DNA of 23,768 bases from a virus (Duplodnaviria > Heunggongvirae > Uroviricota > Caudoviricetes), in the IMG/VR virus record IMGVR_UViG_2778261225_000015; one strand, 5' to 3'. Below are positions 14,835-23,768 of the stretch, piece by piece. The notes beneath the pieces are model-generated. The model was not told the origin of the DNA and did not search any database. It saw nothing but the letters and a program-made list of their open reading frames with translations. How positions within the stretch are numbered: the stretch's first letter is position 1; every line of letters begins with the position of its first letter. The position numbers and the translations under genes were made by a program.

Positions 14835-15521
14835 TTATTGCTTATCTTGTGGTGGTGGAACCTCTTTTTCTAAATTATCTACATACTCTCTAATATTGAA
14901 TGCTTTGTTTTTCCTTATTTCGGTAGTGTTAACCTTACTAACACCATCACGAATGTTTTTATTTATGGTGTCTATTAATTTTTGTCTTTCTTGTTCTGTT
15001 TTTATTATTTCACTTAAGAATGACTTTGCGTTTCTTGAAATGTCCGTCTGTCTATTAATGAATAGTATCGCATACACTGAAAAAACCAAGCAAGTAGTCG
15101 TTAGTGCGGAATTAAAAAATACCCCATAATAAACATTAACTTTTGTTATTGACGCTGATAACGTTAGTGATATCAAAAAAAACAAAATCAGGGTAAAAAT
15201 ATATGCAATGGTTACTTTGTTTTTAGTGGTGTCAAGAATGTATGAAGTTCTTTGATCATCAAAGTAATCCTTTATCCTTGATGGAGTGTTTGCGGGGAGT
15301 TCTAACTCCTTTATTTTATCATCAGCATCAATTAGTCGCTTAAACATGAGGCTAATGATTACGGCGCTAAAGACAGAGATCCCCTTTGAAATTATAGGAT
15401 CGAAATCAATTAAAAATGAGTATTTTGAATAAACAAAAACAATAACAAAACCACATATAAGCCCAATTACAATTGAGCTTGCTATGTTTTTTGCATATGT
15501 TTGTAACGTATTGTTTATCAT
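14835..15521 (-). CDS. Integral membrane protein, 228 aa, four predicted TM helices (2 + loop + 2) with cytoplasmic charged tail; second gene of a two-gene cargo operon
   Basis: Hydrophobic segments near residues 13-31, 47-60, 114-135 and 141-165; ATGA start/stop overlap with the upstream gene; AT-rich. Confidence 0.7.
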   Translation of the reverse strand: MINNTLQTYAKNIASSIVIGLICGFVIVFVYSKYSFLIDFDPIISKGISVFSAVIISLMFKRLIDADDKIKELELPANTPSRIKDYFDDQRTSYILDTTKNKVTIAYIFTLILFFLISLTLSASITKVNVYYGVFFNSALTTTCLVFSVYAILFINRQTDISRNAKSFLSEIIKTEQERQKLIDTINKNIRDGVSKVNTTEIRKNKAFNIREYVDNLEKEVPPPQDKQ

Positions 15522-16501
15522 GGGTTAATTACTCCGGTGTCTAGTAAGCGCAATAACCATGAAATCATTTCTTCAGCAACGTTGTCAGCAATTAGCATTC
15601 CATTGCTGTATTCAATATTAACTGAATCCTTTAGTTGAATCTCATCATTCCTGAGTATTCCTGCACCTTTTAACTCAATTGTTAAGCTTTCATCTCTATT
15701 ATCAACCAAGCCTTGTGTAATTTTACGCAACATGTCTTGCTCAGACTCGCTTGCTTTATATTTATACCCAATGGAAATATCAATTGATAGAGATTCCCTG
15801 TCAGGTGAACCATCATTTAAAATGGTATTTTTCTTCATTTCATTAATTCGATGTTCACCTACGAGCGTTTTTAATAGCTCACTAGCTGTATCATCAATAT
15901 TATTTCCATAGTAGGTTAAAGGCAGCTTTAAGCTAACATTTTTTACTATGTTACGTTTTAAAAAATCCGTATTTAGAGACAGGTTGTTTGCCTGTAAAAC
16001 GATGAAGTTATCATCAGTAATAGATAGGTTGTCTTGTAGTATGAAATTTATATAATTTTCAATATCTTTTATTCTAATAGATCTGCTTTGCAGAATTATG
16101 AAGTGGTTCTTAATCACACCAATGTATGCAATGCTTTCTAAATACTCTCTAGCATTCCCACTTGATAAATTTAATGTCTCGTATGTTAAAGCTGTTTTAG
16201 CATAATCGCTAACAGAGAAAACAGGAATGCTACTACCCGGTTCAATATAGACAATTTCCGCAAAAAACATTCCATGAATTTCTTTGCTATTTGAAAGAAC
16301 CATGTGGGCGTGAGCAGCGACATTACCATTATTATCTGGAACATCAGGGAAGAATAATCTATCAGCAACATTTGGAACCTTGATTTTCACAAGGTTTGCC
16401 AACCTATCTTGCAGGTTTGATGTTAAAAGAGCATCCTTTTTAGGAAGCATTATTGCATGGCGATAATGCAGCATTTTACTCTTATAATCTTGCGTTGCCA
16501 T
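15518..16501 (-). CDS. Uncharacterised soluble protein, 327 aa; first gene of a two-gene cargo operon at the portal/cos hotspot
   Basis: ATG 16501 preceded by AGAGGGA; no Walker A, HxH or GxSxG motif seen by eye; AT-rich codon usage unlike the phage backbone. Confidence 0.75.
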   Translation of the reverse strand: MATQDYKSKMLHYRHAIMLPKKDALLTSNLQDRLANLVKIKVPNVADRLFFPDVPDNNGNVAAHAHMVLSNSKEIHGMFFAEIVYIEPGSSIPVFSVSDYAKTALTYETLNLSSGNAREYLESIAYIGVIKNHFIILQSRSIRIKDIENYINFILQDNLSITDDNFIVLQANNLSLNTDFLKRNIVKNVSLKLPLTYYGNNIDDTASELLKTLVGEHRINEMKKNTILNDGSPDRESLSIDISIGYKYKASESEQDMLRKITQGLVDNRDESLTIELKGAGILRNDEIQLKDSVNIEYSNGMLIADNVAEEMISWLLRLLDTGVINP

Positions 16502-17244: not shown

Positions 17245-19392
17245 CTATGGCGCTGCGGAGAAAATTTCACCTTTGGACGTTCCACGCAACCATTTACCGT
17301 TAATACAACTTTTGCCACCTGCTATCAGGTGCAGGGCTTCTCCCCGGCTGATGGTAATGCCGGTTGTCAGACGGATCTCGTCGATAGTTTTTTCTATCGG
17401 AGCACTTTGCTCATCTGTTCCGTGGATAAATTTCGGCCTCTTAGGTGGCTTTGGTTTCCTGATTCGGTTCGTCAGCTCTCGCCTTTCACGTCGACTCAGG
17501 GGTTTTGATAAATCGAGTTCCGGTGGATCGCTTTCGCTTCCCGTACAGTTATTGACAGAACTCCAAGGGACGGCGAAGCCGTCCTTAACGTCAACGGCCA
17601 AATCAACGGCACGCTTCGGAACAATTTTCCATTGCGTGAGCCGGGTTAAAATCGGAGTGCCAACACCAACGGTGGAGTCGTACACACCACGAATGCAGAC
17701 AGTTTCCTCACCATACTGGTTAAACTCGGTGCGCGGTTCATAAAGCGTACGCACCTGCAAATCATCGCGACGGACAAACGGACCGCCCTGCGCATTAACA
17801 TAGCCAGCCCAATCACCGGCATCGGCGGCATCATGGACAGCCGCAAACTCAACACTTAGACCGTGCGCGGTCTCGGTATCTGCAAGGCGACGCAATTCAC
17901 GATAAACAGTCACTGGTGCACCACCGATAAACTGAAACTGACGAATATGCCAGCGCGCCGCCCATGCTGAAACGGCGGGGGCTGTCTCTTTCAACAGTTC
18001 ACCGTTTTCGTCATCGGTTTCGTCATCAAGAGCGTAACCGTCGATATTTTTCGAGATGTATTTCGCGACGTAGCCGGTTGCGCTGCCTTTCTCCGGATCA
18101 ATGGCTTCTGCGTGGAAACGTGCTTTTTTGGCTTTATCGCTTTTGAGTTCGTGAAAATCTTCTTGCCATGCGTAGTCCCGAATAATGCCACGAACGGTAT
18201 CGACGTCCTCCGGGAGCATAAACATCAGCATATGCCAGTGAGGGCACCCGTCATGGTGAGGCTCTGCAACGCGGATCCCGAAAATACGAATGTCTTCACG
18301 GTGGAGTTTTGCGCGAATGCGTGCCCACAGGCCAGTGAGATAACATTGCGTATCGGATGGATTGGATCCATTCCATTTGGTGTTACGGTAGCCTGCCTTT
18401 GTCGTGGCGTGATATTTAGACGGTGCGGTCAGGGTGTAAAACTCACCAACATAACCGAGCTCATTGCAGATATTTTCAAACCCACGAATGCGGGTCATAA
18501 GCTCACAGCGTCGAATCGCAGAGTTAGCGACTGAACCATCGTATTTTTCAATCAGGCTGATACGGTTGCCGTCTTCGTCTTCAAGCTCCAGACCTTTGAG
18601 AAATTCGCGCGTCCGGCGCTTCTGTTCACGCCAGTCTGTCACGCAGTTTTTACTCGCGTAGACATGTTTTTTCTTACTGACATTTCCGATTGCGATTTGC
18701 AGGTGTTCGCGCCACGCAGCCGCAATGCGACGCAGACGGCCACGCCACCATTTTTCCGAAAACATACGGGCAATTGCTGGAGCGACTTTATCCTGATCCC
18801 AATATTTATCCCGCGACCGTTCCCACTCTGGTGGCATTATCCTGAATTGCTGAGTGATGAAACCAGCATGCATATACCAGGCATTTAATGTCTCCAGTTC
18901 ACACATGTCAGAATCGTCAATGTTGACTAACTCTGCACGGATAAAATCGGCGATATCAGCAGCCAGCAGGTCGATGTCGGCGCGTGCCATATCCGGGAGT
19001 CGGTTGTATCTGGCGACTATGTTGACCATGCGAGACGCCAGATATTGCATAAGCTGAGTATCGAAATGACAACCGAAAACAGCGGCTGATACGTTGCTGT
19101 TAATACCGGTACACTCGTATTTTTTTGCGACCAGTTCAAAACGCGGCAATGCCTTTTTGCAGAAGCTTATTAAAAAAGCATTGGCTCGTTGACTGCCCTG
19201 ATTTTGCTCCAGCACCGCAGCAGTGCGATAAACGTCAAAACGTACACACTCGGGCTGGAGGGAAAGCACCTTTCTAGCATGCAGCAAAGCCGCGAGCATA
19301 CGGTCGCGGCGATACTGTTGGTCGTAGGTAAGATATGGACTGGCTATTGCCGACCGTGGAGCATTCCACGGAAACGCGAATTGAACAGCCAA
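17245..19392 (-). CDS. A: Replication initiation protein A (rolling-circle replication endonuclease, P2/186 gpA family)
   Basis: 715 aa, gpA-like size and position; the first codon is TTG at 19392 with GGGGGA 7 nt upstream, directly after the stop of the upstream zinc-finger gene; no in-frame ATG near the 5' end. Confidence 0.85.
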   Translation of the reverse strand: MAVQFAFPWNAPRSAIASPYLTYDQQYRRDRMLAALLHARKVLSLQPECVRFDVYRTAAVLEQNQGSQRANAFLISFCKKALPRFELVAKKYECTGINSNVSAAVFGCHFDTQLMQYLASRMVNIVARYNRLPDMARADIDLLAADIADFIRAELVNIDDSDMCELETLNAWYMHAGFITQQFRIMPPEWERSRDKYWDQDKVAPAIARMFSEKWWRGRLRRIAAAWREHLQIAIGNVSKKKHVYASKNCVTDWREQKRRTREFLKGLELEDEDGNRISLIEKYDGSVANSAIRRCELMTRIRGFENICNELGYVGEFYTLTAPSKYHATTKAGYRNTKWNGSNPSDTQCYLTGLWARIRAKLHREDIRIFGIRVAEPHHDGCPHWHMLMFMLPEDVDTVRGIIRDYAWQEDFHELKSDKAKKARFHAEAIDPEKGSATGYVAKYISKNIDGYALDDETDDENGELLKETAPAVSAWAARWHIRQFQFIGGAPVTVYRELRRLADTETAHGLSVEFAAVHDAADAGDWAGYVNAQGGPFVRRDDLQVRTLYEPRTEFNQYGEETVCIRGVYDSTVGVGTPILTRLTQWKIVPKRAVDLAVDVKDGFAVPWSSVNNCTGSESDPPELDLSKPLSRRERRELTNRIRKPKPPKRPKFIHGTDEQSAPIEKTIDEIRLTTGITISRGEALHLIAGGKSCINGKWLRGTSKGEIFSAAP

Positions 19393-20878: not shown

Positions 20879-21103
20879 TTAGGCTGCCACATAGCGGCAA
20901 TTAAGGCCCTGAGCCAAGAGTCGAGCACGGAAGGCAACCATATTGATACGCGCAGCACCACCGTCTTTTTTACGGGGCATCAGGAGGAGATCTCCATCAG
21001 CAACCATCTGTTTTACAGTGCGAATGCTGTAGCCGTAGCATTCAGCAAATTCGTCATAAGTCATGAGATCCGCGCCGGACGGGATTGCAATTTGTGGAGT
21101 CAT
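20879..21103 (-). CDS. apl: Apl/Cox-like excisionase and switch repressor (small HTH protein)
   Basis: 74 aa, first gene of the lytic transcript divergent from cI; HTH-like segment MTYDEFAECYGYSIRTVKQMVADG. Confidence 0.7.
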   Translation of the reverse strand: MTPQIAIPSGADLMTYDEFAECYGYSIRTVKQMVADGDLLLMPRKKDGGAARINMVAFRARLLAQGLNCRYVAA

Positions 21104-21189: not shown

Positions 21190-21807
21190 ATGTCAATTTG
21201 GATTTTCGCGATAACTCGGATTTTTAAGATGAAATTGGATGAGTTAGAGGGTGGAAAAGCAGTGCTGCAGCGCATCCTTGATGCGTATGGCTTCACCATG
21301 CAAAAACAACTCGGTGACTTGCATGAGCTGTCATCGGGAACAATCAGCACTTGGGTTCGGCGTAATTTTTTCCCCGGGGATGTTGTTGTTGCATGCGCTT
21401 TGGACACTGGGGTGTCTTTACGTTGGTTGGCAACAGGGAAGGGGAACAAGTTTGATGCAGACCATACTAATGGCGAAATGAAAACATTAGACCGATTGGA
21501 TATTGTTGCAGGTAAGCTGCAGGAAAACGGTCATTGGATTGTTGATGCTAACCTCTTTTCTACTGAGGCGACGCACCCCAATTACATAGTAAAAGGCCAG
21601 CAGTCCTGGATAGTTGATTTTGATATGACTGATATAGCAAATGGGCGATGGATGCTCAGTATCGACGGGGATCATGATGTCTATGACGTTGCAAGGATCC
21701 CGGGGAACAGAATAAAAGTCAGCAACGCTGATGCCGATTTTCAATGCTCAGTTTCTGAGGTTAAGTGTATTGGCATGGTGCTGGTAAGCCTGACGAAATC
21801 TAGCTAA
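21190..21807 (+). CDS. cI: CI-type immunity repressor
   Basis: HTH-containing N-terminal domain (LQRILDAYGFTMQKQLGDLHELSSGTISTWV) plus C-terminal oligomerisation domain; immediately upstream of int on the same strand as in 186. Alternative start ATG 21229. Confidence 0.8.
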   Translation: MSIWIFAITRIFKMKLDELEGGKAVLQRILDAYGFTMQKQLGDLHELSSGTISTWVRRNFFPGDVVVACALDTGVSLRWLATGKGNKFDADHTNGEMKTLDRLDIVAGKLQENGHWIVDANLFSTEATHPNYIVKGQQSWIVDFDMTDIANGRWMLSIDGDHDVYDVARIPGNRIKVSNADADFQCSVSEVKCIGMVLVSLTKSS

Positions 21808-21811
21808 CGAT

Positions 21812-22849
21812 ATGAGTGTTAAAAAACTGACATCGGGTGAATGGCTTTGTGATTTCCGCGTCGACGGGGCTGAAAGTCGCCGCGTGCGTAAGAAGTTTTC
21901 AACCAAAGGTGAAGCCGTTGCCTTCGAGCAGTATTACCGAGAAGAGGCACAAAATAAGCCGTGGATGGGTGAGAAGGAAGACCGTCGACGTTTGAGTGAA
22001 CTGATTGAGCTGTGGCATAACCTCCATGGCCAGTCGCTCGCTGCCAGCAAATCGCGATTGGCCAAACTGCACATTGTTTGCCGGGGTCTTGGCGACCCAA
22101 TCGCTACCCAGCTTACCGCCAAAGATTTCGCCCATTATCGGGATAAACGTCTCAAGGGTGAAATCGACAATGGCTATCACGCAAATTCTGAAAAGTGGAT
22201 TGCGAAACCTGTGACTGTGAACCGGGAACAACAGTACCTCGAAGCTGTTTTCAATGAGCTGAAGCGCTTGGGTGAGTGGAGTCTGCCAAATCCTCTCGAA
22301 GGTGTGCGAGTTTTCAAAGAAGCCGAAAAAGAAATGTCTTGGCTTACCCAGCCTCAAATTCGCGAAGTGCTCAATGCTTGTGAGTCATACGGGAAAATTT
22401 ATTTAACCCGTATCGTCAAAGTGTGCTTAGCGACTGGTGCTCGATGGAGCGAGGCCGAGCGTCTTACTCGTTCACAGCTTTCACCCCACAAGTTGACTTT
22501 CACTAAAACGAAGGGAAAGAAGAATCGTACAGTACCGATCCCTCGGTGGCTATATGACGAGTTGGCTCCTTTACAGGGAAAAATGTTCCACCCCTGCTAT
22601 CAGGAGTTCAAGAAAATGCTCGCTCTGACCGATATAGAGTTAGCTGAAGGGCAAAAAACGCATGTGTTACGTCATACATTTGCGAGTCACTTTATGATGA
22701 ATGGTGGGAACATTTTAGTACTGCAACGAATCTTGGGCCATTCTAACATTAGGGAAACCATGAGATACGCTCATTTTGCACCAGATCATTTAGAAGAAGC
22801 TGTAACTCTTAACCCTATTTCTAATTTAACAGGATTATATGATGAGTGA
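21812..22849 (+). CDS. int: Tyrosine-recombinase integrase
   Basis: 345 aa; C-terminal catalytic block HVLRHTFASHFMMNGGNILVLQRILGHSNIRETMRYAHF (R..H-x-x-R...Y signature). Confidence 0.9.
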   Translation: MSVKKLTSGEWLCDFRVDGAESRRVRKKFSTKGEAVAFEQYYREEAQNKPWMGEKEDRRRLSELIELWHNLHGQSLAASKSRLAKLHIVCRGLGDPIATQLTAKDFAHYRDKRLKGEIDNGYHANSEKWIAKPVTVNREQQYLEAVFNELKRLGEWSLPNPLEGVRVFKEAEKEMSWLTQPQIREVLNACESYGKIYLTRIVKVCLATGARWSEAERLTRSQLSPHKLTFTKTKGKKNRTVPIPRWLYDELAPLQGKMFHPCYQEFKKMLALTDIELAEGQKTHVLRHTFASHFMMNGGNILVLQRILGHSNIRETMRYAHFAPDHLEEAVTLNPISNLTGLYDE

Positions 22850-23768
22850 GCCAACCATCGAAACACCTCCAAGAATGACCGAGGCCAAAGTCATTAGGGT
22901 ACGCACTCGTGGTTTTTATAATTTAGTTGAGATAGGTGCAGTCTTTCTAGTTGCAAATGTAATTTTTGCTACAGGGATATTAGACTCAACCTTTTATTAT
23001 TTATTTCCCAGTGCGAGAGCAGATCTTACACATTTGCCGAGCTTTATCAGGTCAATATTCGCAGTGTCATTTGTAATCGTTTACACCATTATCTATGGTG
23101 TGTCTCCAATCCAAAGAATGTTTATGAGAATTACAGGGAGTGATTCAGTCGACAAATCATCGATGTTTAATATTGTCGATATTATAAATGAGATAAAACT
23201 ACTCAAGAAGGCTCAAGAGGAAAGGGCTGCTGCTGATGAAGATGAATCTCTGGATTTTTATCTTAAAGGTTTGATTAATAGCTCTGAAGGTCTTGCGAAA
23301 AACATATATTCTCGCGGTAGTCTTTATTTATTAGTCGGTGTTTGTTTTGCAATAGTTGGATTAGGTTTCTTCTATTCTCAATCACATGTAATTGATGCTA
23401 AGGATGATGCGGTAACCAAGGTAATGTATCTTCTCCCTAATTTTGGCGTGTTGATTTTCTTGGAGTTAATCGCATTTTTCTTTTTGAAGCAATATCGGGT
23501 TACGATGGATGAGTTTCGCTATTACGAGGCAATAAAACGTTCACGTGAGGAAAGCTATGCCATTATAAAGCTTGTAATGGCTAGCCAGAAAGATATCGAT
23601 ATGATAGACCTTCTGGATAAAATTAATTTTAGCTCAAGAGTTGGAAAACTAGAATCAGGGCAGACTACTGAAATTATTGAAGCAAGAAAATTAGACAAAA
23701 ATGAACTTGAAACCTTAGTAAAGCTTACCGAGGCAGTTGCGGGTAAGATTGGACAGGGAAATAAGTAG
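22839..23768 (+). CDS. Integral membrane protein, 309 aa, four predicted TM helices with cytoplasmic loop and tail; cargo gene downstream of int
   Basis: AGGA upstream of tandem ATGs at 22839/22842; overlaps the int stop by 11 nt; AT-rich; stop codon is the last three bases of the window. Confidence 0.7.
   Translation: MMSEPTIETPPRMTEAKVIRVRTRGFYNLVEIGAVFLVANVIFATGILDSTFYYLFPSARADLTHLPSFIRSIFAVSFVIVYTIIYGVSPIQRMFMRITGSDSVDKSSMFNIVDIINEIKLLKKAQEERAAADEDESLDFYLKGLINSSEGLAKNIYSRGSLYLLVGVCFAIVGLGFFYSQSHVIDAKDDAVTKVMYLLPNFGVLIFLELIAFFFLKQYRVTMDEFRYYEAIKRSREESYAIIKLVMASQKDIDMIDLLDKINFSSRVGKLESGQTTEIIEARKLDKNELETLVKLTEAVAGKIGQGNK

Follow-up and report, generated by a model that had tools for sequence, protein, structure and literature searches.

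The final gene of the window, a 23,768-nucleotide (nt) stretch of Caudoviricetes DNA (IMG/VR record IMGVR_UViG_2778261225_000015) analysed here at its full length, encodes a predicted 309-amino-acid (aa) inner-membrane protein and directly follows the integrase gene int of a PSP3/186-like prophage (positions 22839..23768, + strand, from the listing of open reading frames (ORFs) and the sequence; RefSeq WP_001408077 / WP_001294850). This ORF is phage cargo, a so-called moron, and not part of the host flank. Its product is proposed to be a membrane anti-phage factor that is expressed in the lysogen and protects it from other phages, a reading to which a probability of roughly 0.55 is assigned. 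The anti-phage role is strengthened by the defence candidates that occupy the same slot in related phages, by the int-att hotspot reported for P2-like phages (PMC13586616) and by a DefensePredictor log-odds of 6.2. In Table S10 of the DefensePredictor study, which covers 3,000 E. coli strains, the ORF read from its second ATG (WP_001294850.1) is listed as a putative novel defence gene with a mean log-odds of 6.22 (range 5.09-7.87), compared to a strict threshold of 4 (PMC13092281). From the data described below we infer both this role and an ion-channel mechanism.

A cargo gene between int and the attachment site

The tyrosine integrase gene (Int_N and Phage_integrase, Pfam E-values 5e-34 and 4e-21; 21812..22849, + strand) ends with a TGA stop codon at 22847-22849, and the start of the cargo gene overlaps this stop (ATGATGAGTGA, 22839..22849, + strand, as read from the sequence), which suggests translational coupling. 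There are two in-frame ATG codons, at 22839 and 22842, giving an overlap with int of 11 nt counted from the first and of 8 nt from the second; translation from the latter would yield 308 aa. A Shine-Dalgarno-like AGGA motif (22831..22834, + strand) precedes ATG 22839 by 4 nt and ATG 22842 by 7 nt, and as this motif is better spaced for the second ATG, the latter is the likelier start. RefSeq carries both start forms, with 930 nt in FORC64 and 927 nt in E2348/69. The ORF contains 37% GC compared to 47% for int and 50% for the window, a deviant base composition as is typical of morons. The 309-aa ORF, the 11-nt overlap, the AGGA motif and the AT-richness had all been described in an earlier note on this DNA, made from the letters alone, and were found again upon re-reading the sequence.

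The location of the gene relative to the attachment site could be determined from bacterial genomes carrying the same segment. Ten complete E. coli chromosomes carry an int-ORF segment with 100% identity to that of the window and three more one with at least 99.9% identity, the cargo gene itself being 100% identical in 13 complete genomes. In four records of E2348/69 the ORF adjoins a truncated int. In FORC64, the prophage sits between rplS and yfiB, with yfiB being the next annotated gene after the cargo, and K-12 provides the empty site, in which rplS and yfiB are ~75 base pairs (bp) apart with no gene between them. Both lysogen junctions of FORC64 were compared by alignment with the empty site of K-12 and with the spacer that separates int from ogr in PSP3. 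A 17-bp core at the 3' end of rplS (GAGCGTCTTAACTAAGA) is common to PSP3 attP and K-12 attB, and in the lysogens the att core AGCG(T/C)CTTAACTAA lies at L001:10071-10086, which is 114-129 nt past the cargo stop. At the right junction, host identity starts again at L001:10071, 114 nt after that stop, and the left junction consists of a PSP3-like replacement of the rplS 3' end and its terminator. The att core beyond the cargo stop and the junction alignment therefore place the ORF inside the att-delimited element, where a moron is expected, between int and the P arm of attP.

These junctions also bear on the alternative that the ORF is a host-flank gene, or a spurious reading frame, at a predicted provirus end. 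The last base of the window is the end of the cargo stop codon, as gene-boundary trimming by prophage predictors would give, and the next annotated gene belongs to the host. However, K-12 has no such gene in its short rplS-yfiB interval, host identity resumes only at the att core, and hundreds of homologues are under purifying selection; this explanation is refuted by the junction alignment and retains next to no probability. The earlier note had placed the gene between int and an attachment site expected to the right of the window, and named membership of the host flank as the finding that would overturn this. Extending the sequence rightward through the identical E. coli genomes recovered the att site and then host yfiB, and together with the gene-free spacer of PSP3 this bears out the proposed location.

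PSP3 is the closest sequenced phage, with a cI-int region that is ~72% identical; its int and ogr genes are 240 bp apart, with no gene in this spacer. In a PSP3-like prophage at the same chromosomal site int is directly followed by yfiB, and in PSP3 and vB_EcoM-613R3 int is directly followed by attP or attR. The gene-free int-att interval in PSP3 and the PSP3-like prophage shows that the ORF was gained on the int side of attP. Absent from these close relatives and located in a variable slot, the gene is dispensable, as morons are.

The phage enters the 3' end of rplS, an essential gene, for which it provides a substitute C-terminal end of the coding sequence as well as a terminator (GGGGTTAGCGTAGAGCTAACCCC and then a run of T; L003:10265-10345). 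The native rplS terminator is thereby shifted to the attR side (L001:10071-10141), where it would end a cI-int-cargo transcript. Such a transcript would begin upstream of the gene for a 186-type CI repressor (Pfam Phage_CI_repr and Phage_CI_C; 21190..21807, + strand), the first gene of the putative lysogenic operon. Promoters and terminators were searched for by a consensus scan, in which the number of promoter-like sites was not above chance. A weak candidate for the lysogenic, pL-like promoter (21012..21041, + strand) faces a pR-like site (21196-21169, - strand; a consensus match only), and this face-to-face pair between the apl/cII side and cI resembles the pR/pL arrangement of 186. The scan returned no promoter-like site on the + strand between 21041 and the start of the ORF, leaving the pL-like site as the only one upstream of the cargo, and no terminator-like site from int up to the native rplS terminator at L001:10110-10141, just beyond attR. 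The sole terminator candidate on the + strand is a weak hairpin within cI (21395-21415). Co-transcription of cI, int and the cargo gene in the lysogen is thus plausible, as it fits the start/stop overlap and the lack of intervening promoter-like or terminator-like sites in the scan. Expression in the lysogen had also been expected in the earlier note, which saw in it the pattern of superinfection exclusion or lysogenic conversion.

A second cargo gene gained by this prophage lies outside the window on the ogr side of attP and encodes a 240-aa protein (L003:10470-11192, + strand; WP_000948616) with no convincing match in Pfam, PADLOC, NCBIfam or PHROGs. A copy next to the membrane-protein gene in an E. 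hormaechei remnant (L013:7036-7758) shares 91% identity with it, and a homologue is found 134 bp after int in another IMG/VR locus (L078). An operon joining the two cargo genes across attP in the circular phage is unlikely, as the phage-borne rplS-replacement terminator lies between them. Elsewhere in the prophage, the gene for the gpA replication endonuclease (L001:3359-5581) is annotated in FORC64 as a pseudogene with an internal stop, and the gpA ORF of the window (17245-19392, - strand) is shorter to match, starting at a TTG codon and encoding 715 aa. Judging from this shortened gpA, the prophage may be replication-defective.

Topology, conserved residues and family of the cargo protein

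Kyte-Doolittle analysis yields four hydrophobic segments at about residues 28-48, 68-88, 161-181 and 196-216. The N-terminus contains 5 Lys and Arg residues, the loop 89-160 has 10 of them and the tail 218-309 has 16, compared to 1 and 2 in the two short loops. This pattern places both termini on the cytoplasmic side, together with the long loop and the tail of 92 residues. The protein is accordingly predicted to be N-in/C-in with its bulk, about 190 residues, cytoplasmic and with periplasmic loops of only ~19 and ~12 residues. This is the arrangement given in the earlier note, which had read the protein as two helices, a charged loop, two further helices and a tail of roughly 90 residues.

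Conservation is unevenly distributed over this layout. The N-terminal half, with transmembrane helix (TM) 1 (aa 28-48), the short periplasmic loop and TM2 (aa 68-88; 22920..23102, + strand, for TM1-TM2, from hydropathy and alignment A2), is variable, yet contains Pro90 after TM2 and, in TM1, an invariant Glu31. The C-terminal half is strongly conserved. Its core is the TM3-TM4 hairpin (aa 161-216; 23319..23486, + strand; alignment A2), with invariant G167 and G174 in TM3, while TM4 contains an invariant P200 and a near-invariant Glu209. At the membrane-cytoplasm boundary, TM4 is followed by the motif with the highest conservation, FFFLKQYRxxMDEFRYYEAIKRSREE (aa 213-238; 23475..23552, + strand; alignments A2 and A3). 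The AlphaFold2 (AF2) model is all-helical, with a long hairpin formed by residues 134-182 and 191-248 (predicted local distance difference test score, pLDDT, 73.7). An internal duplication of a module of two TMs plus a helix (2TM-plus-helix) was considered but not supported, since hhalign of the N-half against the C-half gave a probability of 0.5%. Compared with the Cedecea and Citrobacter orthologues, the ratio of nonsynonymous to synonymous substitution rates (dN/dS) is 0.08-0.11, with 0.10-0.17 for the N-half and about 0.06 for the C-half, which shows purifying selection at the level of the sequence.

The family is large. The 90% cluster database contains 117 homologues, all of them unnamed, and a profile search of 1.84 billion representatives returned 2,434 at E<=1e-3, including 317 at E<=1e-30. 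These counts, together with the low dN/dS, establish that the cargo ORF is a real gene and not a chance reading frame. Nearly all members are stand-alone proteins of 280-340 aa, and they originate from Enterobacterales, Pseudomonas, Alcaligenes, Variovorax, Sphingomonas, Flavobacteriia, Chitinophagia, Bacillus, cyanobacteria and Acidobacteriota. Five proteins of 137-197 aa on long contigs (P0242, P0243, P0249, P0252 and P0260) consist of only the C-terminal module, TM3-TM4 plus the tail, which hints that this module can exist alone, although some of the short proteins may be truncated gene calls.

The window protein matches nothing above threshold in Pfam and NCBIfam, and its sole PHROG match is phrog_5157, a family of unknown function. 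The protein is not named in the literature found, and accession searches of full texts were empty. A Pfam scan of 60 aligned members gave a single recurring signal: PF20712 (CyanoTRADDas_TM) is weakly matched by 27 of them on the TM3-TM4 hairpin, with a best E-value of 5e-4, and no other family is matched by more than four. Among ten further relatives, six match PF20712 at 11.6-15.1 bits. No TRADD-N fusion or neighbour occurs in the family members and neighbours examined. PF20712 is a 2TM domain that accompanies TRADD-N in conflict proteins of cyanobacteria. The likeness to PF20712 is a weak lead from profile matching and does not amount to membership.

The int-linked slot and the proposed anti-phage role

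A scan of IMG/VR yielded 25 loci with a homologue of the cargo gene. In twelve further 186/PSP3-like proviruses, cII on the opposite strand is followed by cI, int and the homologue, which in ten of the twelve starts -38 to +2 nt from the int stop; the exceptions carry it between cI and int (L031) or after a second, truncated copy of int (L025). Compared with the window, the integrases of these proviruses are 60-95% identical and the cargo proteins only 37-45%, the N-half being 19-36% and the C-half 47-60% identical to the window protein. By these alignments, the cargo at this fixed slot is deeply diverse in its alleles.

The same slot was surveyed in the 80 closest relatives of the integrase. 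The provirus ends within 100 bp of int in 27 of these, and in 17 the int stop has an ORF of 305-509 aa that begins within -37 to +23 nt of it. Of these 17 ORFs, five belong to the cargo family, two encode FRG-domain proteins that match the PADLOC candidate PDC-S15 (E 1e-112), two encode RelA/SpoT-domain proteins that match the PADLOC candidate PDC-S33 and are possibly CapRel-like, and the rest fall into three families without known function. The occupants from outside the cargo family represent at least five protein families and are found in L076, L112, L089, L114, L137, L138, L147, L153, L143, L150, L151 and L148, and those without a family match comprise a 395-406-aa family, a 366-380-aa membrane family and a 509-aa protein. 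With such mixed contents, the slot behaves like a small hotspot for cargo, with defence candidates among its occupants. For P2-like phages, a survey from 2026 describes the int-att region as a minor hotspot, holding 3% of their defence systems (PMC13586616).

The tight coupling to the int stop in most 186-like alleles would also suit a function in the phage life cycle that is tied to int, such as the establishment of lysogeny, the timing of induction or excision, or lysis, to the benefit of the phage instead of the host. The homologues located between cI and int (L031) or downstream of a repressor (L012, L156) would be in line with this. However, the gene is dispensable, being absent from PSP3 and, by tblastn, from all 50,697 deposited phage genomes, unrelated proteins occupy the slot in sister phages, the gene is intact where int and the remaining prophage are destroyed, and homologues are also found outside prophages. 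A life-cycle function is for these reasons considered quite unlikely.

Outside the 186-like proviruses, homologues are located at the edges of other prophages in Enterobacter, Alcaligenes and Chromobacterium, and downstream of prophage repressors in Variovorax, Sphingomonas and Flavobacterium. Others lie beside Lamassu genes, near a reverse transcriptase and an OLD-type TOPRIM gene, or beside Abi_C, a ScoMcrA-type SRA gene or CcdB, and some reside in small islets of defence or toxin-antitoxin genes that are not part of a prophage. Among 37 non-redundant loci, no family of neighbouring ORFs is shared by more than two, and the protein thus appears to need no dedicated partner. A two-gene system formed with the gene downstream was not supported either: the two neighbours with a weak Mrr_cat signal show no relationship to one another or to the 240-aa gene, and no neighbour recurs. 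The Mrr_cat signals (21.4 and 16.9 bits) lie just downstream of the homologue in Variovorax (L012:9136-10125) and Pseudomonas (L007:8956-10374).

The cargo gene is also preserved in decayed prophages. It is intact in four kinds of decayed element with differing breakpoints within int: in E. coli E2348/69, where a C-terminal piece of int is joined to tail genes; in a Citrobacter lineage that retains only int residues 228-339; in C. portucalensis, with a 77-aa int fragment; and in E. hormaechei, where only int residues 287-339 remain and the 240-aa gene is kept upstream. This retention is suggestive of a benefit to the host. Persistence in remnants would also be expected if the protein were a membrane toxin or part of an addiction mechanism, through which the prophage or its remnant is maintained because cells suffer harm when they lose or misregulate it. 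A small hydrophobic hairpin protein with buried charges, with toxin-antitoxin genes near some loci (YafO in L005, CcdB in L155), would suit such an element. Against this, there is no conserved adjacent antitoxin candidate, a lone chromosomal gene cannot enforce its own retention, and the gene is apparently tolerated as a single gene in many genomes; an addiction element is therefore regarded as very unlikely.

A benefit to the host need not involve phages. The protein could be a membrane protein for lysogenic conversion or host fitness, acting for example in stress tolerance, ion homeostasis or envelope modification, and carried as a moron. Its location and expression logic are those of known morons, it is intact in decayed prophages of several genera and under purifying selection, and conserved buried glutamates also suit a transporter or channel of a housekeeping-like role. 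However, no transporter or enzyme family matches, the short periplasmic loops are poorly suited to surface modification, and glycosyltransferase or flippase partners are lacking. Furthermore, the contexts are mostly prophage lysogeny modules and defence-type genes, and deep allelic divergence at a fixed locus next to a conserved int is more typical of conflict genes. A host-fitness role apart from defence is thus unlikely, if less so than an addiction element.

The preferred reading is as follows. The ORF is a horizontally acquired accessory gene that was inserted between int and the P arm of attP of a PSP3/186-like prophage. It is probably transcribed together with cI and int in the lysogen, where translation would be coupled to the end of int and the native rplS terminator on the far side of attR would end the transcript. 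It encodes a stand-alone four-helix inner-membrane protein with a conserved TM3-TM4 hairpin bearing the buried Glu209, and with Glu31 in TM1. This protein would oligomerise in the membrane and sense a phage cue at or near it, with the variable N-terminal half setting what is sensed. The cue would trigger an ion leak through the conserved hairpin, leading to collapse of the membrane potential and an aborted infection, as has been proposed for RexB or 2TM-effector modules. Such an infection-triggered ion leak is slightly favoured over a non-lethal block of DNA entry, i.e. superinfection exclusion, which is nearly as likely. The lean toward the leak derives from the conserved buried carboxylates and the hairpin that weakly resembles predicted pore-forming 2TM effectors, and from a mass that is mostly cytoplasmic, minimal periplasmic loops and the spread of the family across phyla and phage types.

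A more specific version is put forward tentatively and is, taken as a whole, rather doubtful. It holds that the family provides single-gene membrane immunity, sensing with the N-terminal TM pair and the loop and acting through an ion path in the C-terminal hairpin lined by Glu31 and Glu209, that the hairpin is distantly related to the TRADD-N-fused 2TM effectors, and that coupling to int would leave every lysogen armed.

Several observations weigh against an anti-phage role or its proposed mechanism. WP_001294850.1 is absent from the DefensePredictor table of units chosen for testing, and the overall validation rate of that study was 45% (PMC13092281). The window protein has no significant match in PADLOC-DB v2, the only hit being a Cas5a model (E 0.0015) on a helical stretch, which was taken as noise. 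A profile search of PDB sequences was without a match, fold comparison gave no significant match, and the AF2 model is only moderately confident at its pLDDT of 73.7. Neither the tblastn search mentioned above nor blastn found a copy of the ORF in the deposited phage genomes. With regard to PF20712, no member reaches the gathering threshold of 24.3 bits, the window protein itself is without a match, and a core-profile search toward PF20712-annotated proteins reached only unannotated, mostly short relatives. In addition, adjacency to defence genes is guilt by association, and the retention in remnants could result from deletion endpoints rather than from selection.

If the protein is protective, it would represent a new single-protein membrane family for defence or exclusion, comprising at least 2,434 sequence clusters from Proteobacteria, Bacteroidota, Bacillota, Cyanobacteria and Acidobacteriota and recognised by no defence annotation tool used, and would put the int-att hotspot of P2-like phages, so far little studied, on an experimental footing. 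The family would then offer a compact model for how a lone membrane protein senses and stops a phage, with Glu31, Glu209, Pro200 and the FFFLKQYR...RYYEAIKR helix as mutational targets and natural alleles with swapped N-halves for the mapping of specificity. If not protective, the protein would be the product of an ordinary prophage moron without an assigned function.

Comparison with known systems

RexB of phage lambda is a four-helix inner-membrane protein encoded in the repressor operon and is thought to be an ion channel that collapses the membrane potential upon superinfection. The cargo protein resembles RexB as a predicted four-helix inner-membrane protein in the putative lysogenic repressor operon of a temperate phage, and the mechanism proposed here is of that type. 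No sequence relation to RexB was found, although none was specifically looked for. Moreover, RexB is ~144 aa long and needs the cytoplasmic sensor RexA, whereas the cargo protein has 309 aa, with ~190 cytoplasmic residues, and no conserved partner. A two-component arrangement of the Rex type (RexB plus RexA) was not found, as no partner recurs in the 37 loci. T4 Imm, P22 SieA and HK97 gp15 are small phage inner-membrane proteins that block the entry of incoming phage DNA. Like these, the cargo protein is encoded by a single gene carried as a moron, but it is unrelated to them in sequence, its PHROGs search having returned only one family of unknown function. Moreover, the cargo family extends across many phyla and phage types, which is unusual for blockers that are tied to a specific receptor or ejection machinery.

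Predicted pore-forming effectors have a 2TM-plus-helix layout (PMC7159879), and the TM3-TM4 hairpin of the cargo protein with the cytoplasmic helix that follows it resembles these PF20712/SLATT-type effectors. The cargo protein differs from them by its extra N-terminal TM pair, and no TRADD-N, SMODS or SLOG domain is fused or adjacent to it. In the Pfam scan of the 60 members, no SLATT model appeared at E<=1 within the 25 families that were matched most often, and the SLATT proteins that turn up in the fold comparison do so at noise level.

MotA, too, has ~300 aa and two pairs of helices that are separated by a large cytoplasmic loop and followed by a cytoplasmic tail. It shares with the cargo protein conserved Pro and Gly residues in the second hairpin as well as long helices reaching into the cytoplasm; the gross topology agrees, and this is a resemblance only. 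ExbB and PomA recur among weak Foldseek matches at E-values of 0.75-2, which are not significant. Homology to MotA was not supported, with an hhalign probability of 0.2% against E. coli MotA and no PF01618 match. Unlike MotA, ExbB, TolQ and ZorA, the cargo protein lacks a MotB-, ExbD-, TolR- or ZorB-like partner in the 37 loci, and at the E. coli attR the next gene is yfiB.

The window contains a further pair of cargo genes in the slot between gpA and gpQ, the main defence hotspot of P2-like phages. They encode a 228-aa four-TM protein with a charged tail (WP_000609549.1; 14835-15521, - strand) and, overlapping it, a 327-aa soluble protein (phrog_3482, unknown function; 15518-16501, - strand), and contain 31-34% GC. 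WP_000609549.1 is listed in the DefensePredictor Table S10 as a 'putative novel defense gene' with a mean log-odds of 9.12 (PMC13092281), and neither protein has a Pfam match above threshold or a PADLOC match. The earlier note had pointed out that the 228-aa protein shares its overall topology, without obvious sequence similarity, with the cargo protein behind int. The layout of two plus two helices and a tail was indeed found in both, and no homology between them was detected, with an hhalign E-value of 0.23.

As for the hotspots of P2-like phages, i.e. old/tin between gpA and gpQ, Z/fun and int-att, the cargo gene is likewise an AT-rich gene at a fixed, variable slot. It differs from their known contents in that it is not recognised by PADLOC and is a new occupant of the int-att slot instead of a known system. 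The cargo gene is best described as a computationally flagged defence candidate, representing a new family within a known kind of system at a recently described minor hotspot.

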